Virus record (IMG/VR): IMGVR_UViG_3300045988_054881
Length of the DNA: 33,689 nucleotides
From: a virus
Strand: one strand, 5' to 3'
The translations under genes and the position numbers were made by a program. Of this stretch, positions 13,018-30,866 are shown piece by piece (positions within the stretch are counted from its first letter, which is position 1; each line of letters starts with the position of its first letter). The notes below the pieces were generated by a model. That model worked only from the letters and a program-made list of their open reading frames with translations, did not search any database and had not been told where the DNA came from.

Positions 13018-13106
13018 ATAGTTATATTGTTCGTTAGTAATGTACGTACGCACGAGGAACAACTAGTTCGCGCGCGTGCAGTCCCCTGTATGGGACGTGT
13101 GCGGCA

Positions 13107-13138
13107 CAAAAGTACACCGCCAATCCGGCATATACAAA
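13107..13138 (-). promoter_or_regulatory. Canonical Bacteroidota promoter for the late (packaging/structural/lysis) unit.
   Basis: On the minus strand, TTTG (13138-13135), then 20 nt, then TACTTTTG (13114-13107). This matches the TTTG-N19-21-TAnnTTTG consensus and lies ~90 nt upstream of the terS ATG. Confidence 0.6.
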
Positions 13139-13314
13139 TACGGCATAGTTTTTCAAATAAACTCCTTTGTCGTTGGTTTATACACACGAAATACCTACAT
13201 TTGCGGCTCTCACATACCTGTGAGGCCGTTACAAACCTATTCTAAATTAAATAATAAATTACAAAAACGGTTTGTAACACTTATCTATCTCACTTTCAAG
13301 TACTTATCTAAAAG

Positions 13315-13701
13315 TGTGACAAACTAAAAAAGTCAGTAACCACTTTTGTAACCACTTTTGTCACAGCTAATCACCTGATCTATTGCAAATTACGCGCTTT
13401 TCACAAGTATGTGACAAAGAAAACGCCTCAAACACTTCCAACAGGAAATATATAGGTATATTGCTATCTCTACATAGCAATATATTCTCTTTTCTAATAT
13501 AAGTGTTAGGGCTATTTTATATACTTACTGTAACACATATATATAAATAATTGATATAGAGGTAGTTAGCTGTGACAAAAGTGGTTACTATCCTGTGACA
13601 TCAACATTTTTCCTTTTTGTTATTTCTACTGATTATCAATTAGTTAGGTGTGACAAAGGAAAAACGCTATACTGATTATCAGCAGGTTAAGTGTGACAAA
13701 C
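13315..13701. promoter_or_regulatory. Non-coding module A. It holds 7 TGTGACA sites, a 23-bp perfect inverted repeat, a conserved hairpin, an AT-rich tract and 42-nt-period direct repeats.
   Basis: No ORF of 60 aa or more falls between 13328 and 13907. Motif coordinates are given in the findings. A stretch of 183 nt is colinear with 29965-30163. Confidence 0.75.
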
Positions 13702-13814
13702 TTTTAGGCACGTAAAATTAATTACTGTGAATTTTTTACTTTTTCTCCTTTTCGAGCGGTACGCCCGCAATCGACTTTTTGAAAGATTTGTCGACGCACC
13801 GAAAATATAAAACA

Positions 13815-13854
13815 AAAGTGCTAATCTGACATTTTGCAATCAAATTAGCACTTT
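13815..13854 (-). terminator. Putative terminator ending the early unit.
   Basis: An 11-bp stem, 'aaagtgctaat' (13815-25) pairing with 'attagcacttt' (13844-54), encloses an 18-nt loop. On the minus strand it is followed by 'tgttttatatttt'. Confidence 0.45.
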
Positions 13855-13907
13855 TTGCTATCACCTTTAAATAGAACACCCTATTCGTAAAAGGCACTAT
13901 CATTTTA

Positions 13908-14345: not shown

Positions 14346-14466
14346 CTTTCATATTTTTAGTCATCTGCTTCGCTACCTCCCAGAGTACCACGCCAACGCC
14401 CGCCATGAACATTACAACAATCGCACCCGCAAACAACAGTTGCATTAATACTAATATTGCCTCCAT
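14323..14466 (-). CDS. Small single-pass membrane protein of 47 aa (absent from the ORF track).
   Basis: Hand translation gives MEAILVLMQLLFAGAIVVMFMAGVGVVLWEVAKQMTKNMKDDEMYDG*. Its ATG overlaps the upstream stop codon as ATGA (14464-14468). It fills an otherwise empty 120-nt gap. Confidence 0.45.
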   Translation of the reverse strand: MEAILVLMQLLFAGAIVVMFMAGVGVVLWEVAKQMTKNMKDDEMYDG

Positions 14467-14927
14467 CACATTAAAATTATTAGTTTAAACCCGTCTTTCC
14501 TCTTCGCTGCCTCTACCGGATTAATACATTCGGAGACATATATACCTCTCTCAGTTGGTATGTGATCCAAACCCGTAACGATCTGATCTATTATCGGCAG
14601 CCTGTATTTTGCCTCTATGAGTTTCGCCATCCACGACTTTCCCGTTCCGGGTTTCCCTATAATTAGAATACGCATAGGCTTTTCGTCTTCAGCGCGGTCT
14701 AGATCATATTTGCTCACGTACCAATACTTAGCCTGCTCGGTATCGGTAGACGGGATCAGTATAACATCTCCTAGGCTCAGTGCGTCCGCACTCCACCCCA
14801 CGGAAAAACCTTCTACAATTACTGATGCCCCGCGCCCTACAGAGTCATAACCTACTATCTTAACTTCTTCGCCACAAAAACAAAACGTTTCGCCTGCGTG
14901 TAGCTTCGCAAATTTAATATCATTCAT
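14466..14927 (-). CDS. Fusion of the novel 'FA..AG...VGY...GW' domain with a minimal P-loop segment.
   Basis: 153 aa. The N-terminus 'FAKLHAGETFCFCGEEVKIVGYDSVGRGASVIVEGFSVGW...YWYV' matches the domain seen in the next three genes. The C-terminal 'ILIIGKPGTGKSWMAKLIE' is a Walker A motif. Confidence 0.6.
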   Translation of the reverse strand: MNDIKFAKLHAGETFCFCGEEVKIVGYDSVGRGASVIVEGFSVGWSADALSLGDVILIPSTDTEQAKYWYVSKYDLDRAEDEKPMRILIIGKPGTGKSWMAKLIEAKYRLPIIDQIVTGLDHIPTERGIYVSECINPVEAAKRKDGFKLIILM

Positions 14928-15165
14928 ATACTTCTAATTCTTTAACGGTTGCATATCTTATTCGTCCCGCCTGCACTCTACAAGTGAAGACATGCGCGGG
15001 ATCATTTTTCATGTCTTCATATTTCCACCCACCCTTTAACCCGGTGACTATAACTCTCATGTTCCGTTCGGACTTTCTAACATATCCTACTACCCGGACT
15101 TTTTTACCTTCATACCGGGCTTCACGCCCGGCACATAAGGTTGCGAATGTCTTTGCACTTACCAC
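14920..15165 (-). CDS. Novel small-domain protein (array copy).
   Basis: 'FATLCAGREARYEGKKVRVVGYVRKSERNMRVIVTGLKGGW...IRYATVKELEVY'. The ORF-track start at 15204 is a TTG codon that overlaps the upstream gene by 46 nt. A GTG at 15165 gives an N-terminus comparable to the paralogs. The start remains uncertain. Confidence 0.5.
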   Translation of the reverse strand: MVSAKTFATLCAGREARYEGKKVRVVGYVRKSERNMRVIVTGLKGGWKYEDMKNDPAHVFTCRVQAGRIRYATVKELEVYE

Positions 15166-15449
15166 AGTGGTATTTCTTTTAGAGAAACCACCGCGGCATA
15201 CCAAAAACGTTTAGCTTTCGTTTTACACGTGAATTTGTCCTCGTAATCAAGATGGCGCCACCCCCTTCTGTGTGTTATGATTACTCTATCATAACTGTAG
15301 CCAACTACACGCACTCTACTTCCGTCTCCGTCAAATGTATAATAACGCCCCGCGTTATCCTCGGCAAACTGTCTTGCCGATACATCTTCGATTGGGATAA
15401 GCTGATCCCTGGTAACGTACAGACACCTTTCAACTTTGCCGTCCCACAT
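15159..15449 (-). CDS. Novel small-domain protein (array copy).
   Basis: 96 aa with an ATG start. 'FAEDNAGRYYTFDGDGSRVRVVGYSYDRVIITHRRGW...FWYAAVVSLKEI'. Confidence 0.55.
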   Translation of the reverse strand: MWDGKVERCLYVTRDQLIPIEDVSARQFAEDNAGRYYTFDGDGSRVRVVGYSYDRVIITHRRGWRHLDYEDKFTCKTKAKRFWYAAVVSLKEIPLW

Positions 15450-15476
15450 TCTCTCTTAAAAATTCTAGTGTTCCCA

Positions 15477-15953
15477 TTATAATACCTCCTCTAATTCTGT
15501 TTGACCTACATACCAGTATAAATCATATACGCTTTTCTTTAATACCTTATCCGTCGGGCTGAACATCTTGTGTGACCACCCCTTGAATTGTCTCCCAATG
15601 ATAATTGCCAAGTCTTCACGGTTGGCGTTTGAATACCCGCACAGGGTGACAAATTCGGGGCCCCCGCCTCTTGAAACATACTTGAACTTCTTTCCGGCTT
15701 TTTCCGTGGCAAACTCTTCGTCAGTTACGGGTTGAAGTTGATTAATCGCCGCCCACCAAAGGTGTTCGCCTCTAGAACTACAAACGAACGTTATCGGTAT
15801 GTGGGTGTACTGTGCTCCCCACCCAAGCGAAAAGCCGCTAACCAATATTTCTACACCTCGTTTTTCCTCGCTGTAACCTACTAACTTCACAATCTCATTG
15901 TGGTACCGGAAAAACTTTCCTGCATTCTCTTCTGCGAATTTTTTAGTTTCCAT
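15477..15953 (-). CDS. Protein with two tandem copies of the novel small domain.
   Basis: Copy 1 is 'FAEENAGKFFRYHNEIVKLVGYSEEKRGVEILVSGFSLGW...LWWAAINQL'. Copy 2 is 'FATEKAGKKFKYVSRGGGPEFVTLCGYS...IIIGRQFKGW...LYWYVGQTEL'. I chose the ATG at 15953 ('METKKF') because the ORF-track start at 15995 lies inside the promoter -7 box. Confidence 0.6.
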   Translation of the reverse strand: METKKFAEENAGKFFRYHNEIVKLVGYSEEKRGVEILVSGFSLGWGAQYTHIPITFVCSSRGEHLWWAAINQLQPVTDEEFATEKAGKKFKYVSRGGGPEFVTLCGYSNANREDLAIIIGRQFKGWSHKMFSPTDKVLKKSVYDLYWYVGQTELEEVL

Positions 15954-15981
15954 ATTAATTACTGTTTTTAATTTGATACTG

Positions 15982-16035
15982 CAAATATAACTCATTTAGA
16001 GATACGTTGTTTCTTTTGTTAACGTTATTTAAGAA
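15982..16035 (-). promoter_or_regulatory. Phage promoter cassette copy 1 (drives the small-domain array).
   Basis: The minus strand reads CTTAAATAAC-GTTAAC-N8-CAACGTAT-N12-TATATTTG, followed by the leader 'CAAATTAAAAAC'. The cassette overlaps the SNF2 stop codon. Confidence 0.65.
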
Positions 16036-17419: not shown

Positions 17420-17614
17420 TTAGTCTTCGCTTAATGCGTCATCTATCACGCGAAGTAATTTCAATAACTCTATCCGGGTTTGCAGCACATCCATTACAGG
17501 AGCGTTACGTATAGATGTTATATTATTTTTATACCCGGTAACTCCGTTAACCTTAACCTGCGAGTAGCCTCTTTGAGAGGCAACTTCCACAAACAGATAA
17601 CTTGTCTTACTCAT
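17420..17614 (-). CDS. Hypothetical small protein.
   Basis: 64 aa. Its ATG overlaps the upstream stop codon (ATGA). Confidence 0.4.
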   Translation of the reverse strand: MSKTSYLFVEVASQRGYSQVKVNGVTGYKNNITSIRNAPVMDVLQTRIELLKLLRVIDDALSED

Positions 17615-17865
17615 AGCTTCATAAGTTTATCTTTGTACATGATAACCAAGTCTTTGAAATCTTGGCTTTCACTCGTACCGATGTTCAGTTCTTTTCTTAA
17701 CAGGTATCGAATGTCCCGTGATATGTCACGTTCCAAGTCTCTCATGATCTGGTCTTGGTTCCCGTACTTCTCGTCACGGACGTACAAAGCACCGGAACGC
17801 AATCCGAAATACATACCTAGCCTATACTCGATTTCTTCTCTCAGTGATTTCTTTTTAGCTTTCAT
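17611..17865 (-). CDS. Hypothetical small protein.
   Basis: 84 aa with an ATG start. It is preceded by the -7 box TATCTTTG (17892-17899, inside the end of the VRR-NUC gene) and the leader 'ACAATTAAAAACAG'. Confidence 0.45.
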   Translation of the reverse strand: MKAKKKSLREEIEYRLGMYFGLRSGALYVRDEKYGNQDQIMRDLERDISRDIRYLLRKELNIGTSESQDFKDLVIMYKDKLMKL

Positions 17866-17889
17866 ACTGATTACTGTTTTTAATTGTTT

Positions 17890-18228
17890 CTACAAAGATA
17901 GCCCACGCCCTTGCAAGTTGGTATTATCCTTAACTTTATTTAAGAAAAATCTTATTGCCTTGTCCCGGCTTTCTATGTCATCAATAACGACTACAGTAAA
18001 GCCTAGCTGCCTTAACTTGTCATGGATAACCGTCTGAATCTTGGTAGGCTTCTTTCCTGTAGTCTTTATCTCAGCGAAGCCTACAAAGCCGCCACGGCAC
18101 AAGATAAGACGGTCGGGAAGACCTTTCACGAACGTGGATAACAGTTTGATCACCCATACATTTTTTGTCTGATTAAGGTAGGCACTGAACGTTTTTTCCA
18201 GTGCCTTTTCTCCTACTACCTCTCTCAT
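17890..18228 (-). CDS. VRR-NUC domain nuclease.
   Basis: 'GLPDRLILCRGGFVGFAEIKTTGKKPTKIQ' matches the VRR-NUC pattern (PD...E.K...Q). 112 aa. Confidence 0.75.
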   Translation of the reverse strand: MREVVGEKALEKTFSAYLNQTKNVWVIKLLSTFVKGLPDRLILCRGGFVGFAEIKTTGKKPTKIQTVIHDKLRQLGFTVVVIDDIESRDKAIRFFLNKVKDNTNLQGRGLSL

Positions 18229-19799: not shown

Positions 19800-19926
19800 A
19801 ACTTAAATTTTAATAGTTTATAAAAAGAAGCCCGGTTATAAAATCCCTTTCACTTTTTTATATTTCCCTTTCGGGTTTCCTGTTTGCGGTTTCGGTGGCA
19901 AACAACCTTGCTTCGTTTTGGTATTG

Positions 19927-19980
19927 CAAATATAAGGGTTATTCTGATACGTTGTATATTTCGTTAACACTATTTAAGAA
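19927..19980 (-). promoter_or_regulatory. Phage promoter cassette copy (drives the lipoprotein gene), followed by a ~125-nt leader.
   Basis: The minus strand reads CTTAAATAGT-GTTAAC-N8-CAACGTAT-N12-TATATTTG. Confidence 0.65.
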
Positions 19981-20014
19981 TAAACCCTTATATTGCTTTT
20001 CTGTTAACAAGTCG

Positions 20015-22450
20015 TTAACTTTTAGCCTTTCGTACATACCCTCTTTGTTGTCCGTGAGCCTTGCAACGTCTTACACCCCTTTCCCATCCCGGCATACGGT
20101 TAAGCACGCCTGTTATGTCTGCGGCATCGGTACGTTTGATCTTTCCTATCTCGAGATCCAGTGCCTCAACTAAAACAGCGGGAGCGCTTACAAAGTCCAT
20201 GAGCATACACTTTTCCTTGTCTACCTCGTCTTCGTCATAATTGGCATAGTACATTTTCCGTTCCAGTTGGTTCATTTTATCCCAACACAAAGGTACATAC
20301 ATATCCACGTATTTCTGAATGGCAGATGTTCGCGGATCAGCTTCATAGTGTTCTTCCCTTCCGGCCTCAGCAATCATTTCAGCTTCCGGGCTTAATAACG
20401 TGCTGACCTTCCGATAGTACATCTGCACTGCTTCCGCCCAAAGTTGATCTATGTAATCGTCGAAAGCGGGCTCAAAGATAAGATGTGTGTTCGGGTTAAC
20501 CTTACATCTCACCGGAAGGAAACGCCTGCCGCCTGTTGCGTCTTTCAGAAACTCGTCCTTATTAGTTGTGCCTATGAAAACACACTGCCGCGGAAAGTTC
20601 TTTGTAACACGTCCGTAGGCAGGTCTGAAACTGTCCTCTGTCTTCGTTATGAAGTTTTTCACTAGCTCTACCTCAGCTTTTTTCATGGCTGATAGTTCGC
20701 CTACTTCAATAATCCAACTTCCCTGTAGCTGTTCAAAAGCCCGTGTTCCTTCCATTGAAATTAAACTGTCGGAAAACCAATTCTTGCCTAGCTTTTTGCA
20801 CAGTGTACTTTTTCCGGTGCCTTGATCAGCCACCATAACGAGCATACTGTCGAACTTGCATCCCTTCTGAAAGATACGCTTAACGGCACCTACAAGCATT
20901 ATCCGAAAAGCTTCCCGGGTATATATATTGTCCTCGGCACCCATTATATCAATAAGCACTGTATCTACGCGCGGCACTCCATCCCACACAAGGCCCGTTA
21001 GGTAACTTTGCACAGGGTGGAACGAGTTATGTTCAGCCGACAACGCAATGGCATCATCTATCTTTGCACTACTGTTTATCCCGTACATGTCTTCAATATG
21101 TTTGCGGACACCGGAAAAGTCAACGTCTTGAAAGTCGCTAGTGTTATCTTTCGGGCGCCAGATAGGAACACGTGTTACAACGCGTCTTTCCTTAAACAAG
21201 TCTCTAGCTATCAAACCTTTTAAGGCGGGATCATGCTGCATTATCAACCCTAGGTTCTTTGCGCTAGGCAGATAAGCACCTCGTTTATCGGTTTCTAGCC
21301 CGGCCATTGCATCCGTGTACTCTTCTGTTATGGCTTCCACGTCCGTTACTTCCGGCACTTCGTCGCTATATAGCTCCTCGAAATCGTCCACAATTGCAGC
21401 CGCTTTTGCCGTTAACCGGGTGGCCCTTGCTGCTGCTACCTTCTCATCCTTGTTAACTAGTTCAGACATGGCACCCATTGAAGGGCGCTTGTCCTGTCCC
21501 TTATCCATCTTTCCGAACAGGTGAACACGAACTAGGTCGAAAGCGTTGAATACATGGTTTCCTTGTATGGGATCATTGTTATGGAATGAATAAGCAAACA
21601 TATCGTCAAACGTCAGCATGCCACCGGACGTTGATCCGCCTGTGTAAGTCCATCGGTCTTCTTTATCTGTCGGCTCGTACACTTTCGGAAGATACTTTTC
21701 TATCGCTTCCGATATGGTGTACGCCCGGCAGAAATCGCCTACAATACCATCTTTCAGTGTAGGGTTCTGCTGTTCCTTCACTAGGTTGCGTGCTTCTCCT
21801 TTTTCGTCCTTGTGGTACGCCCATTCGGTTACATCGCGCCAATTCTCGTAATACCCCAGATACTTTTGAACGTCTAGTGTTTCCTCGTTCAGTTGGGAAA
21901 AGTCCACGAAATCAAAGTCTACATCTCGGGACACGGACGGGTAGAACATACAGCGTTCGGGTTGGAACGTGGTACGGTCGTACAAGTCAATACCTGTTAA
22001 CTCGGCTACTTTACGGGCAATCGCCTCATATTGTTCGCTGTCTACAGGCTCAGACAAGGGAATGATAACCCGATAACGGTAAACGTTCGCTTTCGGGTTA
22101 TGCTTGTGCGTGCCATGAATAATGCAGGCGCAATTAATAATGCCGTAAAACTTATCCGGGAAATCAGACTCTCCGAAATCTATGTCAAGAGCCAATAACG
22201 AGCGCTCACCGACGTTGTTCTTATTCCGCCTGTTACCGAATAGTTCGCCACCCATGAAGGCGCCAACGTCCTTAATGTTTCCCTGTTCGGTTTTGCTCGC
22301 ACTAATAAATTCACGATAGGTTTCCTCTGTAACTTTCGCCGACGTGAACTTTTCCACCAACTGCGCCCATGTAAATGACTTGTTTTTCCAAGCCGTTGAC
22401 TTCGCGTTGGTGGCGGTGGCAATCTTAAAAACCATTTTAGATAGTTCCAT
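20015..22450 (-). CDS. Primase-helicase (N-terminal primase-like domain plus a VirE/D5-type P-loop helicase).
   Basis: 'LALDIDFGE' provides an acidic catalytic-type motif. Walker A is 'ADQGTGKST'. 'ATGGRRFLPV' is the VirE-family signature. 811 aa. Confidence 0.8.
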   Translation of the reverse strand: MELSKMVFKIATATNAKSTAWKNKSFTWAQLVEKFTSAKVTEETYREFISASKTEQGNIKDVGAFMGGELFGNRRNKNNVGERSLLALDIDFGESDFPDKFYGIINCACIIHGTHKHNPKANVYRYRVIIPLSEPVDSEQYEAIARKVAELTGIDLYDRTTFQPERCMFYPSVSRDVDFDFVDFSQLNEETLDVQKYLGYYENWRDVTEWAYHKDEKGEARNLVKEQQNPTLKDGIVGDFCRAYTISEAIEKYLPKVYEPTDKEDRWTYTGGSTSGGMLTFDDMFAYSFHNNDPIQGNHVFNAFDLVRVHLFGKMDKGQDKRPSMGAMSELVNKDEKVAAARATRLTAKAAAIVDDFEELYSDEVPEVTDVEAITEEYTDAMAGLETDKRGAYLPSAKNLGLIMQHDPALKGLIARDLFKERRVVTRVPIWRPKDNTSDFQDVDFSGVRKHIEDMYGINSSAKIDDAIALSAEHNSFHPVQSYLTGLVWDGVPRVDTVLIDIMGAEDNIYTREAFRIMLVGAVKRIFQKGCKFDSMLVMVADQGTGKSTLCKKLGKNWFSDSLISMEGTRAFEQLQGSWIIEVGELSAMKKAEVELVKNFITKTEDSFRPAYGRVTKNFPRQCVFIGTTNKDEFLKDATGGRRFLPVRCKVNPNTHLIFEPAFDDYIDQLWAEAVQMYYRKVSTLLSPEAEMIAEAGREEHYEADPRTSAIQKYVDMYVPLCWDKMNQLERKMYYANYDEDEVDKEKCMLMDFVSAPAVLVEALDLEIGKIKRTDAADITGVLNRMPGWERGVRRCKAHGQQRGYVRKAKS

Positions 22451-24498: not shown

Positions 24499-24532
24499 CA
24501 AAGATAATATAACTTTTTGTATATAACGCAAA
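24499..24532 (-). promoter_or_regulatory. Canonical Bacteroidota promoter for the polymerase/primase genes.
   Basis: On the minus strand, TTTG (24532-24529), then 22 nt, then TATCTTTG (24506-24499). Confidence 0.6.
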
Positions 24533-24571
24533 AAGGGCGCCTATTTGCATTTTATTAACAAATAGGCGCCC
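24530..24571 (-). terminator. Strong Rho-independent terminator after the phosphoesterase gene.
   Basis: A 13-bp perfect stem, 'gggcgcctatttg' (24535-47) pairing with 'caaataggcgccc' (24559-71), encloses an 11-nt loop. On the minus strand it is followed by TTTTT. Confidence 0.8.
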
Positions 24572-24577
24572 GCTAAA

Positions 24578-25669
24578 TCAATCTGCAAATATAGGTGAAT
24601 AAAATATGAAACCTCTCTTTTCGTTCAAAATTACATAGGTTTGCTGCGGCTCCTCGAAAGCTAGTCCGTGTCCCATCGCGAAGGCGTCAAACCCTTTCAG
24701 TGATCCGTTTACGCAAACCTCTTTAGTGTATATGGAAGTATGGTAGTGCCCGATAAATGCCTTATCAATCTTGATAGTTTGGTTCATTTTGGAATACCAT
24801 CTTAACATAGATGGGTAAATACCTCCGATACCGCCTGCCGTTCTGAATTGGTGCCCATGGGCAAAAAGCATCTTCTTTCCGTACACATCAATATAGGCAA
24901 ACTCACTTTCTGGGATAACAAACTGAAACTTTGTCATGCCCATGAGCGTAATAATATGCTCTATATCCTTGTACATAAAGTACTCGTGGTTCATTTCAAA
25001 ACCGTTACTGAATTGCATCTTTTTGGTAGTGCGCGAATGGTTACCGCAAATACCTATAACCGTGATCTTTTCGAGGTCGGGCAGACTGTCATGTACATAT
25101 TTGAGGCCCGATATGATCAGATTCTTAACAAAGGATATTCCCTGCATGGGAGACATGCTGTTTGTCTGTTCCAATTCCGGGTGTATATACCCGCCAATCA
25201 GATCACCGATAAGCCCTAGCACTAAATTATCTACAGGTTTCTTTTCAATCATGTACACGGCATTAGAAAAGAAATTTTTAATTCTCTGTTCGGCTATCTC
25301 TCTGTTATACCCGTTTTTCCCCAAAACGGTAGACGATTTTACAACCTCGTCAGCATGCCAATCGGATGCTATGAGGAAACCTGTATTTCCTTCCTTATCC
25401 TTTTTGTTTTTCGGAGTTATTTCTACCAATTCGATAGGCGCTGCGTCTTTTTTAAGACCGATTATTCCTTTGATCTCGTCATCACTGTACAGGCTGCGTA
25501 ATTCAGATAACACTGGATCAGTTTCCTGTGATTTAACTTCTGTAGGTTCTTTGCCTTCCCGTTTAGCCCAATATTCGGTATTTCTTTTGTTATAAGGCAA
25601 TACAGGTTTTCCTGTACGCTTGGATATTCTCACGCCATCGGCATTGATAAAGCTATCACTTTTTCCCAT
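24578..25669 (-). CDS. Calcineurin-like metallophosphoesterase (Mre11/SbcD-like nuclease candidate).
   Basis: The ordered motifs 'SDWHAD', 'GDLIGG', 'GNHSR', 'AHGHQF' and 'IGHYH' are all present. 363 aa. Confidence 0.75.
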   Translation of the reverse strand: MGKSDSFINADGVRISKRTGKPVLPYNKRNTEYWAKREGKEPTEVKSQETDPVLSELRSLYSDDEIKGIIGLKKDAAPIELVEITPKNKKDKEGNTGFLIASDWHADEVVKSSTVLGKNGYNREIAEQRIKNFFSNAVYMIEKKPVDNLVLGLIGDLIGGYIHPELEQTNSMSPMQGISFVKNLIISGLKYVHDSLPDLEKITVIGICGNHSRTTKKMQFSNGFEMNHEYFMYKDIEHIITLMGMTKFQFVIPESEFAYIDVYGKKMLFAHGHQFRTAGGIGGIYPSMLRWYSKMNQTIKIDKAFIGHYHTSIYTKEVCVNGSLKGFDAFAMGHGLAFEEPQQTYVILNEKRGFIFYSPIFAD

Positions 25670-25682
25670 TATCGTATAAATT

Positions 25683-25708
25683 AAAAAAGGCGGGCTGTCA
25701 CACCCGCC
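25683..25708 (-). terminator. Rho-independent terminator after the SSB gene.
   Basis: The minus strand reads 'ggcggg-tgtgacag-cccgcc' followed by 'tttttt'. The loop contains a TGTGACA sequence. Confidence 0.7.
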
Positions 25709-26260: not shown

Positions 26261-26326
26261 AACGTTTTATACTTTTTGTTTTTGGCCTCTATACGGTTCA
26301 GCCTTTCCGTTTTTAATTTGATGTTG

Positions 26327-26368
26327 CAAAGATAACAATAAAATCAATACGTTGGTTCTTTTGTTAGC
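26327..26368 (-). promoter_or_regulatory. Phage promoter cassette copy (drives the SSB gene).
   Basis: The minus strand reads GCTAAC-N8-CAACGTAT-N12-TATCTTTG, followed by the leader 'CAAATTAAAAACG'. Confidence 0.65.
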
Positions 26369-26373
26369 ATCTT

Positions 26374-27546
26374 TTATATTTTCTCGAATAAATCAAGCGT
26401 TGGCACTATTGCTTCCCGTGGATCATCTTCCAAAGCTAGAGTAGGCGCGCCTGCGGGCTTTTTGATAACGTCTTTCAGTGTTGCCGCAAATGGCTTTTTG
26501 CCTACCATCTTTTCAAGATCACCGATACCTTTCAGCTTGTGATTTTTTAGATCATCCTCAGCAAACCCTAGTCCGGTTAATAGTTCGATTGCTTTCGCTT
26601 CGTCTGATATAACCCGGACGCTTCGCCCTTCTACTAATTTCCATCCCGGCACGGTTTTTCCTTCTAGAGCTGACTTCATGGCATGTTCTTTGATAGACGA
26701 TAACCAACTGGTGAACATATCGGACTTTTTTAGCAACTCCCCTATCTCGTCTAGGGTTAGGGTGTTTGTATCGCCATGAGTTTCAAATTCAGATACTAGA
26801 GCATCCTTCTGCGCACGGCAAAGAGGTTTATGCTTGCAGAACTTGCAGTGTGATCCGGTGACACACTCACCTTCACCCTTAAAAGCTTTTTCAGCCACCG
26901 GACGCAACGTGTGGATAGCCCAATGCGTTAAATCTCGTGCAGGCATCTCGAAGGTAGGGAAGTGACCTAATCTAACTTGTGCGATATGCATACGTACTGT
27001 TTCTATTTCCGCCTGCCTTTTTGGAGGAAGTGACCGAAGGACGCCTAACGCATACATCATAAGTTGCGAATTATTTACAGCCTCTACCTTAACGCCTTTT
27101 CCGTACTTCAAGTCTATAATATCAAGCACCTTTTCCGATACTATATCGCAGTCACAACTGCCCGAACATTCCGGGACGTACATAGATAGATCAAACTTCC
27201 TCTCTAATCCCATTGTAGCGCCTTCTTTTACCTCGAAAAGATCACAGACATAGCAAACGTAATCCGTTACATACTTATCCATCTCAGGGTCGTAATAAGG
27301 GCTGCTTTTGATGTTTTCCGGTGTCGGAAGGTTATCAAGAAGCGGCATGTAGTTTCCGGCTAGATACTCAGTCAACGCATATTCGGCTAACTCGTGGGCG
27401 GTTGTTCCTTCCTCAGCCGCTGAACTGCTTGTTTCCTCGTAACTCTCTTCCAATCTTGCCGACGGTGTACAAGTCATCCACCGTTTTGATCCGGATGGAG
27501 AGAGTAGGGAATGTGCTCTCTCCGTGTGGTTTATTGTTTCTGACAC
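26374..27546 (-). CDS. PD-(D/E)XK nuclease with a C-terminal Cys cluster (DUF2800/Cas4-like).
   Basis: 'LLSPSGSKRWMTCTPS' at the N-terminus, 'DIIDLKYGKGVKVEAVNNSQLMMYALG' as the D..D.K core, and 'CKFCKHKPLC'. The start codon is GTG at 27546. Confidence 0.8.
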   Translation of the reverse strand: MSETINHTERAHSLLSPSGSKRWMTCTPSARLEESYEETSSSAAEEGTTAHELAEYALTEYLAGNYMPLLDNLPTPENIKSSPYYDPEMDKYVTDYVCYVCDLFEVKEGATMGLERKFDLSMYVPECSGSCDCDIVSEKVLDIIDLKYGKGVKVEAVNNSQLMMYALGVLRSLPPKRQAEIETVRMHIAQVRLGHFPTFEMPARDLTHWAIHTLRPVAEKAFKGEGECVTGSHCKFCKHKPLCRAQKDALVSEFETHGDTNTLTLDEIGELLKKSDMFTSWLSSIKEHAMKSALEGKTVPGWKLVEGRSVRVISDEAKAIELLTGLGFAEDDLKNHKLKGIGDLEKMVGKKPFAATLKDVIKKPAGAPTLALEDDPREAIVPTLDLFEKI

Positions 27547-28526: not shown

Positions 28527-28553
28527 AATTTCTACTTTTTAATTGTTATGGTA

Positions 28554-28607
28554 CAAAGACAAGGAATAAAACAATACGTTGTTCTTTTTGTTAACGTAAT
28601 TTAAGAA
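28554..28607 (-). promoter_or_regulatory. Phage promoter cassette copy.
   Basis: The minus strand reads CTTAAATTAC-GTTAAC-N8-CAACGTAT-N12-TGTCTTTG, followed by the leader 'ACAATTAAAAAG'. The upstream gene's TAA stop lies inside GTTAAC. Confidence 0.6.
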
Positions 28608-29106
28608 AGTTGTTTTTCTGAATTTTGTCAATCCATGCTTTAGGAACGATAGGGAGCGTGTCTATATACTGCTTGATATAAACCTTGCGCCCGTTTGAAT
28701 CGAAGGAATACCAACCTACGTTGCTATACTTGAAAAAAGACCTATAATCTTTGTTTAGCTTAACAACCTTACTGACTATATCGTTCACATCCACTTTCCC
28801 TACACAACCAGACTGTGCTAAATCAGATGCTTTCTTGATAAGTAGTAAGGCTTCCAAAAAGCACGGGTTGTCTCTCAAATAAACCAAGCATTCCTGCGTA
28901 TAGTGGGACGTGTCGCATAGGTCTACGGGTTTAGCTTTTTTCGATGCGCGTTTCAGTAACTCTTCGGTCATCTCTGCGGGGAAAACATACCGCCCGTTAT
29001 TGGGGAGATTTACCCGTACGATGACGGTTCCTGTTTTGGTGGAATCCATTAATTCCGGTGACACAATAATGTCGGCAATCTGATTTTTTAAACTTCTAGC
29101 TTTCAT
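28591..29106 (-). CDS. Hypothetical early protein.
   Basis: 171 aa with an ATG start and its own cassette promoter. Confidence 0.5.
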   Translation of the reverse strand: MKARSLKNQIADIIVSPELMDSTKTGTVIVRVNLPNNGRYVFPAEMTEELLKRASKKAKPVDLCDTSHYTQECLVYLRDNPCFLEALLLIKKASDLAQSGCVGKVDVNDIVSKVVKLNKDYRSFFKYSNVGWYSFDSNGRKVYIKQYIDTLPIVPKAWIDKIQKNNFLKLR

Positions 29107-29140
29107 AACGTTTACTTTTTGCTTTTTAATTTTGATACTA

Positions 29141-29194
29141 CAAAGATACGTATTATTCCGATACGTTGGTTATTTTGTTAACCTTATTTAAGAA
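29141..29194 (-). promoter_or_regulatory. Phage promoter cassette copy.
   Basis: The minus strand reads CTTAAATAAG-GTTAAC-N8-CAACGTAT-N12-TATCTTTG, followed by the leader 'CAAAATTAAAAAG'. Confidence 0.65.
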
Positions 29195-29395
29195 AATAGC
29201 CTCCATTAGCGGTTGTAAGAACTTGTAGGACTCTCCGTTAAATTGATAAGATTCTATTTTCCCTCTAAAGCGCACCTCTGAAAAAGAAGTGTTATACTCG
29301 TTACCTTTGTCATCCACATATACGAGTATGTGATTGATGATAATAAAGTCACCATCTGTTAGGTGTCCGGCATTGATACAATTTATTGCTCTCAT
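29153..29395 (-). CDS. Hypothetical small early protein.
   Basis: 80 aa with an ATG start. Its 3' end is encoded by the next promoter cassette. Confidence 0.45.
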   Translation of the reverse strand: MRAINCINAGHLTDGDFIIINHILVYVDDKGNEYNTSFSEVRFRGKIESYQFNGESYKFLQPLMEAIFLNKVNKITNVSE

Positions 29396-29465
29396 ACGAT
29401 TTTTTCCGACTAGTGCCTCGGTGGCCTTCCGCTAGGTGAAACAACGTGTTTCCCTTTCTGCTCTG

Positions 29466-29520
29466 CAAAGATATGGATAAAAACAATACGTTGTACATTT
29501 CGTTAACACTAATTAATAAT
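29466..29520 (-). promoter_or_regulatory. Phage promoter cassette copy with a ~70-nt GC-rich leader.
   Basis: The minus strand reads GTTAAC-N8-CAACGTAT-N12-TATCTTTG. Confidence 0.6.
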
Positions 29521-29758
29521 TTAGTGTTTTAATCGTTATTGAACCCTTATCGCTATATCCGTTCTTGCAAACGAAAAACAAGGCTTTTAAGTCTCTAGCT
29601 CTAGGACTATTAGAATTCATAACGGACTCTATGAGAGAAACGTTGCTGACGTGTTGACGCCATACCCGGCCCGATAGAGGGCTTTTATATTCTACTAGAT
29701 ATTTTCTACAACCCAATGAGGTGAACTCGAAATCGTGAACGCTGATTTTTGTTGCCAT
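29513..29758 (-). CDS. First early gene. A small protein, paralog of 28326..28526.
   Basis: 81 aa. 'ISVHDFEFTSLGCRKYLVEYKSPLSGRVWRQHVSNVSLIESVMNSNSPRARDLKALFFVCKNG'. Confidence 0.55.
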   Translation of the reverse strand: MATKISVHDFEFTSLGCRKYLVEYKSPLSGRVWRQHVSNVSLIESVMNSNSPRARDLKALFFVCKNGYSDKGSITIKTLNY

Positions 29759-29785
29759 TTGAATTACTTTTTAATTGTTATGCTG

Positions 29786-29840
29786 CAAAGGTAGGAAAAG
29801 ATATGGTATGTTATACATTTCGTTATGTTACATTAACACT
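29786..29840 (-). promoter_or_regulatory. Degenerate cassette-type promoter of the first early gene, overlapped by an operator-like palindrome.
   Basis: The -7 box TACCTTTG (29786-29793) is followed by the leader 'ACAATTAAAAAG'. The upstream boxes are altered (CATAAC / TAACATAC) but keep the same N8/N12 spacing. Confidence 0.55.
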
Positions 29841-30234
29841 TTTGTGCGTGTAACAGCTAAATTGTTGCATATCAAGGCATTATAAAAACGTGTGACAGAT
29901 TCAAATGTTATAGTAACATAAATGTAACACTGTAAGTTGTTGTAGGTCTGTGGGTTACTAGCGCTGTGACAAAAACACGCCTAAAATTCCCTTATACTTT
30001 TATTTCGTTGTTTTGCAATTTATACCCCTATATTGTAATCTCTGATATTACAATAATCTATTTTCTCGAATAAGTATAGGGCTATTTTTATATATTTGCT
30101 GTAACAGATATAGTTAAGTAGTTGTAATAGAGCAAGTTAGCTGTGACAAAAGTGGTTACTATCTCAAATGTTAATGTAACATAATCTCATAAGTTATTAT
30201 AAATGAGCTGTTTAACTGTGACAACGGTGTGACA
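29825..30234. promoter_or_regulatory. Non-coding module B. It holds 5 TGTGACA sites, 3 ATGTTA-N3-TAACA(T/C) palindromes, a conserved hairpin and the 29-nt core shared with module A.
   Basis: No ORF of 60 aa or more falls between 29759 and 30287. Coordinates are given in the findings. Confidence 0.75.
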
Positions 30235-30240
30235 GTCCTA

Positions 30241-30279
30241 AACGAAAACAGGGAAGCACCATTTTTGGCACCTCCCTGT
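30241..30279 (-). terminator. Terminator ending the late unit, specific to the minus strand.
   Basis: A 14-bp stem pairs 30248-61 with 30266-79. Three positions are G-U pairs in the minus-strand RNA but A-C mismatches in the plus sense. It is followed by 'uuucguuu' and lies 9 nt after the stop at 30288. Confidence 0.65.
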
Positions 30280-30287
30280 TTTTCTAT

Positions 30288-30866
30288 TTATTTGAACCGT
30301 ACTGCAACGTCTATGTTAATTTTTGTTTTCGGGTTCTTATTGGAAATATCGTAGTTAACCTTTTTTAACCCCCATCGAAAGAATAAGAATCTCTTTTTCT
30401 GAATGGAAACAACGCCTACTATCGTGTCCCTGCCAATGTATGAAAGCTTCGCTGAATCTCTTATCTGTTCTGACTTGATTGTGTTCCAAGCGTCTCTATA
30501 TTCAGCGGTTACTATCTTATTAATGGTGTCTACCCGAACAGTTTCTATCACCTCCGTTGTACTTTCGGTTCGGACGGCTGACTGAACGTCTTTTATACGT
30601 AGCTTCAACGCGCTTATTTCTTTGCGCAGATCAGCGTTAACCGATTTCAACTCTTTATGTGATAGCTCTAGAGCTTGTTTCTGCTCGGCCGCGTCTCCCA
30701 GTTTAGTAACGTATGACACCGCCTCAGAAGTTAGTCCAGATATGTTCCTTTCCTGCCTTTCAATGGTTTCTTTTTGGGCATTTATCTTTGCTACCAAACG
30801 GGATATAAGGCCCAAAGTAACCGCCACGATTGTAGCGGTTGCTATGATCTTTTGAAGCTTACTCAT
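30288..30866 (-). CDS. N-terminally membrane-anchored coiled-coil protein (spanin-like lysis accessory, putative).
   Basis: The ATG at 30866 gives 'MSKLQKIIATATIVAVTLGLISRLVAKINAQKETIERQ...', a TM helix followed by a heptad-like region. It is the last gene of the lysis cluster. The ORF-track N-terminal extension overlaps the lysin gene. Confidence 0.45.
   Translation of the reverse strand: MSKLQKIIATATIVAVTLGLISRLVAKINAQKETIERQERNISGLTSEAVSYVTKLGDAAEQKQALELSHKELKSVNADLRKEISALKLRIKDVQSAVRTESTTEVIETVRVDTINKIVTAEYRDAWNTIKSEQIRDSAKLSYIGRDTIVGVVSIQKKRFLFFRWGLKKVNYDISNKNPKTKINIDVAVRFK

Follow-up and report, generated by a model that had tools for sequence, protein, structure and literature searches.

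A predicted class of early promoters in a gut phage family, with an invariant CAAC at the position of the host -33 element

The virus record IMGVR_UViG_3300045988_054881, a DNA stretch of 33,689 nt (hereafter, the window, i.e., the whole stretch analysed), carries several copies of a cassette, GTTAAC-N8-CAACGTAT-N12-TAnnTTTG, which an earlier note on this DNA had proposed to be a phage-specific promoter of rigid geometry in which the -33 element of the Bacteroidota host is replaced. The window has all of its long open reading frames (ORFs) on the minus strand and is colinear with Bacteroides siphovirus isolates of 33-36 kb (EMB1, BU1-1 and C2_18_80S2P). The family Bacteroiduroviridae has been proposed for these isolated relatives, and BU1-1 and BU2-1 have been called lytic (PMC12694917). 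At the early end, which comes first in transcription order, a non-coding region of 530 bp (30288-29760) is followed by small early ORFs and by the genes for a DUF2800 exonuclease, a gp2.5-like single-stranded DNA-binding protein (SSB) and an Mre11-like exonuclease. Next in order are a family A DNA polymerase and a VapE-type primase-helicase and, downstream of the latter, further small ORFs, a VRR-NUC nuclease and a SNF2 helicase. A second non-coding region (13900-13062) separates the early genes from the late block of terminase, tail, head, portal, holin and lysin genes. Pfam detected neither an RNA polymerase nor a sigma domain in 30 scanned ORFs of the window; therefore, as a phage without its own RNA polymerase, it must use that of the host.

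With up to three mismatches allowed, the cassette pattern was found in the window at just six places, all on the minus strand, compared with 0.01 expected from shuffled sequences, and these coincide with the six precise copies reported earlier. In addition, we employed a position weight matrix trained on 131 cassettes of relatives, with the window excluded from training. This matrix returned exactly eight sites in the window and nothing else, all of them on the gene (minus) strand, and no site in 20 window shuffles reached more than 5 bits. A degenerate copy previously placed at 29786-29840 was recovered in register, with a score of 14.4 bits. Hence, the seven copies of the earlier list all stood, but the list was not complete, as one weak copy (17889-17946) had been overlooked. 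TAnnTTTG is exact in seven of the eight copies, with TGTCTTTG in the remaining one, and TTG is absent from the stretch from -42 to -31 (N8 plus CAAC) of all eight, which bears out the reported lack of the host -33 TTTG. Within the window, the copies share the boxes only, their N12 spacers and flanks being different. Recent duplication and chance were ruled out as the origin of the copies by the shuffles, by these differing spacers and by conservation at 55-80% protein identity.

Numbered from the early end, copy 1 (29782-29839, minus strand, as are all others) is the degenerate one, which reads cATAAC-N8-tAACaTAc-N12-TACCTTTG and would drive orf81 (29758-29513). It aligns in register with the other copies, and its leader, ATAACAATTAAAAAGTA, is identical to that of copy 4. 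Since orf81 and orf66 are paralogs (39% identity, E 9e-19), copies 1 and 4 together with their genes represent a duplicated promoter-plus-gene unit. Copy 2 (29462-29519; 45.3 bits) is followed by a 71-nt leader and an 80-aa ORF (29395-29153), and copy 3 (29137-29194; 65.5 bits) by a 171-aa ORF (29106-28591) with no relative in IMG/VR. Copy 4 (28550-28607; 48.8 bits), whose -7 box is TGTCTTTG, would drive orf66, two ORFs of 88 and 166 aa and the DUF2800 exonuclease gene. Copy 5 (26323-26380; 67 bits), with GCTAAC instead of GTTAAC, precedes the SSB gene (26260-25721), after which lies a terminator (25708-25689). Copy 6 (19923-19980; 66 bits) has a 128-nt leader ahead of a 131-aa lipoprotein ORF (19799-19404). 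The weak copy 7 (17889-17946; 14.6 bits), reading GTTAAG-N8-CAACTTGC-N12-TATCTTTG, precedes an 84-aa ORF (17865-17611) and falls within the VRR-NUC gene, at its 3' end; relatives have a corresponding embedded copy at this position (e.g., L121 23583, L123 4202). Finally, copy 8 (15978-16035; 60.6 bits) heads a block of small ORFs that extends from about 15947 to 13908. The distance from the G of the -7 box to the next ATG-started ORF is 28, 71, 35, 28, 67, 128, 28 and 35 nt in copies 1 to 8, respectively.

The word GTTAAC by itself occurs 25 times in the window (12.7 expected). Two extra GTTAAC boxes, 11 bp apart (AGTTAACGACTTGTTAAC), are located at 20003-20019 in the end of the primase-helicase gene, around 35 nt upstream of copy 6.

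We next describe the geometry of the cassette by setting the G of TTTG in the -7 box as position -7. In its upstream part, tTAAA occupies -57 to -53, GTTAAC -48 to -43 and an A-rich octamer -42 to -35; in its downstream part, CAAC at -34 to -31 and (C/G)TAT at -30 to -27 are followed by N12 and by TAnnTTTG at -14 to -7. The fixed geometry is therefore GTTAA(C)-N8-CAAC-N16-TAnnTTTG. The spacing was scanned with the gaps left free in 20 loci of the family, where CAAC-N16-TAnnTTTG occurred 91 times, while every other gap between 8 and 26 was found nine times or fewer. GTTAA(C/A/G)-N8-CAAC(C/G)TA was present 59 times, with one other gap seen once, so that both spacings described as invariant, N8 and N12, were corroborated at the family level. 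The distances between GTTAA and the -7 box showed a second peak 10 bp beyond the main one.

Conservation of the boxes in relatives, the lack of which had been named as a refutation of the proposal, was observed at several levels. In seven isolate genomes that share 55-80% protein identity with the window, a fuzzy scan detected 4-9 cassettes each, all of them on the gene strand. With a consensus query, the cassette was recovered from 39 isolated phages of Bacteroides and Phocaeicola, and it is also present in many metagenomic contigs. The core CAAC-N16-TAnnTTTG was present in essentially every family locus that we fetched. In a set selected by a pattern that itself contains CAAC, all unique cassettes (108 of 108) had C at -34, a degree of conservation equal to that of the -7 box. 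When orthologous SSB promoters from about 65 related loci were compared with no motif filter, the boxes were the least variable columns. In Phocaeicola phages, the second box keeps CAAC only, as in CAACTATC and CAACCGAC, and the GTAT half of CAACGTAT is not retained. None of the eight isolate genomes compared has homologs of the window genes that lie between the cassettes at 28.3-29.8 kb or at 14.4-16 kb.

The SSB promoter of two loci, L138 and L139 (L269, L270), has lost CAAC (GTTAAACAGTAGGAGTAT...), and it is their SSB that is closest to that of the window (87-88% identity). Both retain CAAC-type cassettes at other sites, so an individual promoter can drop out of the class.

With regard to the sequences that follow the -7 box, a conserved leader had been reported for the cassette. 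The AATTAAAAA leader is indeed present in six of the eight copies, but copies 2 and 6 (29466 and 19927) have long, different ones. Structured RNA in these long leaders was rejected on the basis of no match in Rfam and of z-scores of -0.5 for the overall fold of the copy 2 leader, which has a small 5' hairpin, and of -1.4 for that of copy 6. Both long leaders (29396-29461 and 19800-19922, minus strand) open with a short hairpin; in relatives, the long-leader class (e.g., L121 2760-2800) opens with GTCAAAAGGAAAC, as do the leaders of the unrelated phage B124-14 (L137). The stop codons of the upstream genes had been placed in the cassette, in GTTAAC or in the second box. This proved correct only in part. 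Such a stop was found within GTTAAC in copy 4 (28554). In the other copies, it lies within the distal TTAAAT-type box (15982, 26327 and 29466), within the N12 spacer (29141), just past the -7 box (17893) or around 35 nt upstream of the cassette (19927).

A further observation concerns the 5' leader of the SSB gene (approximately 26262-26320, minus strand; L141-L204), in which a small hairpin with the loop GAACCGnnnAGA is conserved. One of its four stem pairs is UA, CG, AU or GC depending on the phage, and the hairpin may be a site of translational autoregulation by the SSB protein.

Two promoters of the window are of the canonical type, as had been stated, namely that of the polymerase and primase operon (24499-24532, minus strand; TTTG-N22-TATCTTTG), with a terminator hairpin just upstream (approximately 24580-24545), and that before the terminase and structural genes (13107-13138, minus strand; TTTG-N20-TACTTTTG). 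The equivalent of the polymerase-operon promoter in relatives is not a cassette either. As TTTG-type promoters stand alongside the cassettes, the genome has two promoter classes, which could be timed apart.

The Parabacteroides phage PM708P2 (L126) belongs to the same family, with 45-70% protein identity and the same gene order, and the fuzzy scan found no CAAC cassette in it. Its equivalent promoters read TTAAA-N5-GTTAAA-N3-TTTG-N19-TAnnTTTG, and one of them is orthologous to a cassette promoter of the window, with an identical leader, GCAACATCAAATTAAAAA. This comparison indicates that the upstream boxes are shared and that, in PM708P2, a normal -33 TTTG takes the place of the A-rich octamer and CAAC; the proposed replacement of the -33 element is therefore visible between orthologous promoters. 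In three minus-strand TTTG promoters of PM708P2 (at 15893, 13489 and 8649), the spacer between -33 and -7 is filled by a GC-rich palindrome, GGCGG-N11-CCGCC, which looks like an operator for a dimeric repressor.

A second comparison was made with the Bacteroides fragilis phage B124-14 (unrelated, 47 kb), which is the source of the P_BfP1E6 expression tool (Whitaker et al. 2017) and of the constitutive phage promoter used in uninfected Bacteroides (PMC10746243); a preprint that engineers this promoter mentions its UP elements and -7 consensus. We reconstructed the promoter family from the phage genome, and a full-text literature search for the P_BfP1E6 sequence with words of the cassette matched only an unrelated plasmid sequence. 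B124-14 contains four near-identical promoters, each with three TTAAA-type boxes, a TTG/TTTG at around -36, a -7 box and the leader GTCAAAAGGAAAC. They resemble the cassettes in the presence of several near-identical copies per genome, in the TAnnTTTG -7 box, in the TTAAA/GTTAAA boxes at approximately -66 to -44 and in the GTCAAAAGGAAAC A-rich leader type of the long-leader copies of the family. By contrast, TTG/TTTG is kept at about -36 and CAAC is missing, and activity in uninfected cells is established for B124-14, that of the CAAC type being putative.

The TTAAA/GTTAAC boxes are thus not specific to the clade, since they are also found in the TTTG-type promoters of PM708P2 and B124-14. On this point the earlier picture of the cassette as a single phage-specific unit did not hold; CAAC is the only clade-specific part of it. 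UP elements of strong promoters such as rrnB P1 are sites for the C-terminal domain of the alpha subunit. Similarly, the cassette has A/T-rich subsites at -57 to -53 (tTAAA) and at -47 to -43 (TTAAC), about one helical turn apart, followed by the A-rich octamer up to -35; it differs in the G and C of GTTAAC, whose conservation is stricter than in typical elements of this kind. Judged by sequence, the CTTAAAT and GTTAAC boxes are probably UP-like and read by the host, given that the same boxes occur in the B124-14 promoter, to which UP elements are attributed and which is active in uninfected cells.

We are highly confident that the eight cassettes are promoters. Promoter rules in the Bacteroidota amount to one -7 box and a loosely defined -33 box. 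Compared with the canonical promoter of the primary sigma factor (sigma-A; sigma ABfr), the cassettes share the TAnnTTTG -7 box ahead of the predicted start sites and a subsequent short A-rich leader without a Shine-Dalgarno sequence, but TTTG is missing at -33 and CAAC is found instead, at an unvarying distance of 16 bp from the -7 box. In Bacteroides host promoters, the -33 element is loosely kept and the spacer length varies (PMC7366714). In the mechanism that we propose, the cassettes would serve the phage early and DNA-metabolism genes, and the host polymerase with its primary sigma factor would bind through the -7 box and initiate some 7-9 nt downstream of it. The short A-rich leader of six copies would supply the translation start site, and TTAAA, GTTAAC and the A-rich octamer would act together as an UP element, most likely read by the host polymerase itself. 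A dedicated specificity factor would read CAAC and contact the polymerase where sigma region 4 normally sits. This factor would most likely be phage-encoded, comparable to MotA at the T4 middle-promoter box, and the reading of CAAC would separate these genes from the TTTG promoters of the polymerase operon and of the late genes.

The explanation as a whole, with a separate and probably phage-encoded factor that reads CAAC, is the one that we tentatively favour from the comparative analysis. A dedicated reader is suspected because CAAC is as invariant as the -7 box and lies at one distance from it, unlike the host -33 element, and because all early and middle promoters of the clade have CAAC where the sister clade has TTTG. 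The closest precedent is found in T4, whose middle promoters combine a MotA box, (a/t)(a/t)(a/t)TGCTT(t/c)A, with AsiA in what is known as sigma appropriation. In both systems, the host -10-type element is retained without a -35-type element, many copies lie ahead of DNA-metabolism genes, and a class-specific box is centred at approximately -30, around 12 bp from the downstream element; here, CAAC(G/C)TAT occupies -34 to -27, 12 bp from TAnnTTTG, in 91 cassettes. The two differ in that the box is CAAC, unrelated in sequence to the MotA box, that no MotA or AsiA homolog was matched in the Pfam, PHROGs and NCBIfam scans, and that the host sigma is of the Bacteroidota type. Furthermore, the CAAC class also heads the very first early genes, and factor dependence is here only proposed. 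A system resembling sigma appropriation, in which a small phage protein without a known fold re-aims the Bacteroidota sigma holoenzyme away from TTTG and towards CAAC, 16 bp from the -7 element, is a possible but less likely version of this explanation.

A possible candidate for that protein, and a weak one, is the product of the 84-aa gene behind copy 7 (17611-17865, minus strand). It is basic, with three helices in an AlphaFold2 model (predicted local distance difference test, pLDDT, 88.5), and it is the only small early protein that is present in all the CAAC-type genomes compared and not in PM708P2. Its 349 homologs (E <= 0.001) are nearly all encoded on short or ~33-kb metagenomic contigs. 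The conserved 88-aa early protein, in turn, is unlikely to be a DNA binder, as it is strongly acidic (pI, isoelectric point, 4.4).

Several results weigh against a dedicated reader. The earlier note had suggested a distinct promoter class that is read with the help of a phage factor or an alternative sigma or activator. Its first half, a class without the -33 TTTG and with a sigma-A-type -7 box, holds; for the putative helper, no phage sigma factor, activator or DNA-binding protein was identified, with no match to sigma, helix-turn-helix, MotA or AsiA families in Pfam (30 window ORFs), PHROGs (20 early-region ORFs) or NCBIfam (10 early ORFs). The model of the 84-aa protein had no match with E < 0.6 in PDB or BFVD, and the link of this protein to the CAAC type is a single phylogenetic contrast. 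In addition, the first promoters after the non-coding start region are of the CAAC type both in the window and in relatives; in the latter, these promoters have dropped GTTAAC and kept ACAACCTAT. It follows that the host polymerase, in unmodified form, has to be able to use at least some of these promoters; otherwise, the factor would need to be injected or made first from the polymerase-operon promoter. Lastly, the closely similar promoter architecture of B124-14 works without a phage protein.

These points lead to the strongest rival, according to which the host polymerase acts alone, and which we consider possible and nearly as likely as a dedicated factor. The cassettes would then be strong constitutive early promoters of the unmodified sigma-A holoenzyme, with the upstream boxes as an UP element for alpha and with CAAC either contacted in a non-canonical manner by sigma region 4 or alpha, or tuning promoter strength. 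Since the start of the early region has this promoter type only, something must transcribe those genes first, and B124-14, constitutive in uninfected Bacteroides, has the same upstream boxes together with the long-leader type of the relatives. The Pfam and NCBIfam scans revealed no recognisable candidate factor, and the -33 element is in any case weakly kept in host promoters. However, an element invariant like the -7 box and held at one fixed distance is not how the host -33 element behaves, and a single sigma would have to read, in the same genome, TTTG at spacings of 19-22 as well as CAAC at 16. The division between a CAAC clade and a TTTG sister clade also suggests co-evolution with a dedicated reader.

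A further point against the host polymerase acting alone is that no conserved host promoter of this type was found. The full pattern was matched by eight stretches in one genome from each of 185,579 species, a collection in which we estimate that 1-2 matches would be expected by chance. Six of them are mis-binned contigs of this phage family, and the remaining two stand in promoter position before host genes in metagenome-assembled genomes (MAGs) of Prevotella. One of the latter (L132 4025-4066, on an 80.7-kb contig of a rumen Prevotellaceae MAG) lies in the correct orientation between uvrA and the gene for a primary sigma factor (290 aa), and it is complete, including the TTTAAAAGTT box ahead of GTTAAC. 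A host promoter class of sigma-A genes was nevertheless dropped, as this match is not kept in three other Prevotellaceae lineages: ahead of the sigma-A gene, Segatella maculosa, S. baroniae and another Prevotella have an ordinary TTG and no CAAC at -34 (TTGACACGTAT in S. baroniae). The two host matches are probably due to chance. Promoters of the extracytoplasmic function (ECF) sigma type, with AAC at -35 and CGT at -10 separated by 16-17 bp, were rejected too, because 11 bp separate CGT from the AAC of GTTAAC, CCT stands in place of CGT in most relatives, and the downstream element is a sigma-A -7 box.

It is improbable, although conceivable from the position of the box, that CAAC and its flanks are a shut-off operator, at which a phage protein would silence together, later in infection, early promoters that the host polymerase reads unaided. 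The -34 to -27 interval is a usual one for block by a repressor, every early and middle promoter has the box whereas the polymerase and late promoters do not, and the palindromes in the three PM708P2 promoters offer a case of operator-like sites inside promoters of the family. Yet the CAAC site lacks dyad symmetry, the distance to the -7 box never varies although an operator as such would not require this, the absence of TTTG is left unexplained, and the Pfam and NCBIfam scans found no repressor-like protein. Very unlikely is a recombination linker, in which conserved gene-boundary units of 60-80 bp would be homology patches for swapping small accessory genes, with promoter activity as secondary: although homologs of the genes that separate the cassettes (28.3-29.8 kb and 14.4-16 kb) are missing from the eight isolates and one promoter-plus-gene unit is duplicated in the window, recombination needs neither invariant short boxes with free spacers nor a -7 box, a single orientation and a fixed start-codon distance, so that it is at best a side effect of promoter function. 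The remaining probability is held by readings other than these four.

We found no promoter analysis of this family in the genome announcement of EMB1/EMB2 or in the family proposal for the BU phages (PMC12694917). The cassettes of this gut phage family make up a promoter class that is real, conserved and not described before; in kind, it belongs with the well-known phage-specific classes that retain the host -10-type element. To our knowledge, almost nothing is known about how transcription is scheduled in Bacteroides phages without a polymerase of their own. A -33 slot with a different invariant word offers a handle on what contacts this slot in the Bacteroidota, and the class also bears on whether gut phages re-programme the host sigma factor. 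The strongest promoters in Bacteroides engineering are phage-derived, and a second, possibly switchable family would be useful there. The family matrix, moreover, points to the gene starts and operon borders of dozens of gut phage genomes with poor annotation. A factor that re-aims sigma would, if true, be the first described for this phylum and an orthogonal switch for Bacteroides engineering; if the host polymerase reads CAAC unaided, the outcome is more modest, namely a family-specific strong early promoter.

Some other features of the window were recorded. Four adjacent small ORFs (156, 96, 94 and 153 aa; 14466-15947, minus strand) resemble tandem paralogs with the common pattern FA..NAG....(F/Y).....V(K/R)(L/V)VGY......V...G...GW, and tblastn detected no homologs of them in the eight isolate genomes. 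Three strong terminator-like hairpins on the minus strand, at 25689-25708 after the SSB gene, at around 24545-24580 just before the polymerase promoter and at 13814-13855 after the last early gene, would divide the early region into separate transcription units.

The non-coding region upstream of the early genes also contains an E. coli-type promoter, TTGTCA-N17-TATAAT, that matches at 11 of 12 positions (30196-30224, minus strand); promoters of this type are not expected to be active in Bacteroides, and it may be a chance match. The two non-coding regions (29760-30288 and 13062-13900, minus strand) have in common a stretch of about 150 bp, the core of which (GATAGTAACCACTTTTGTCACAGCTAACT...) is nearly identical in both, with an inverted repeat of approximately 24 bp after each copy. 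TGTCACA occurs 16 times in the window (3.9 expected), 12 of them within these two regions and mostly as TTTGTCACA. The shared stretch and the TGTCACA repeats could be origin iterons, packaging signals or sites for a phage regulator.

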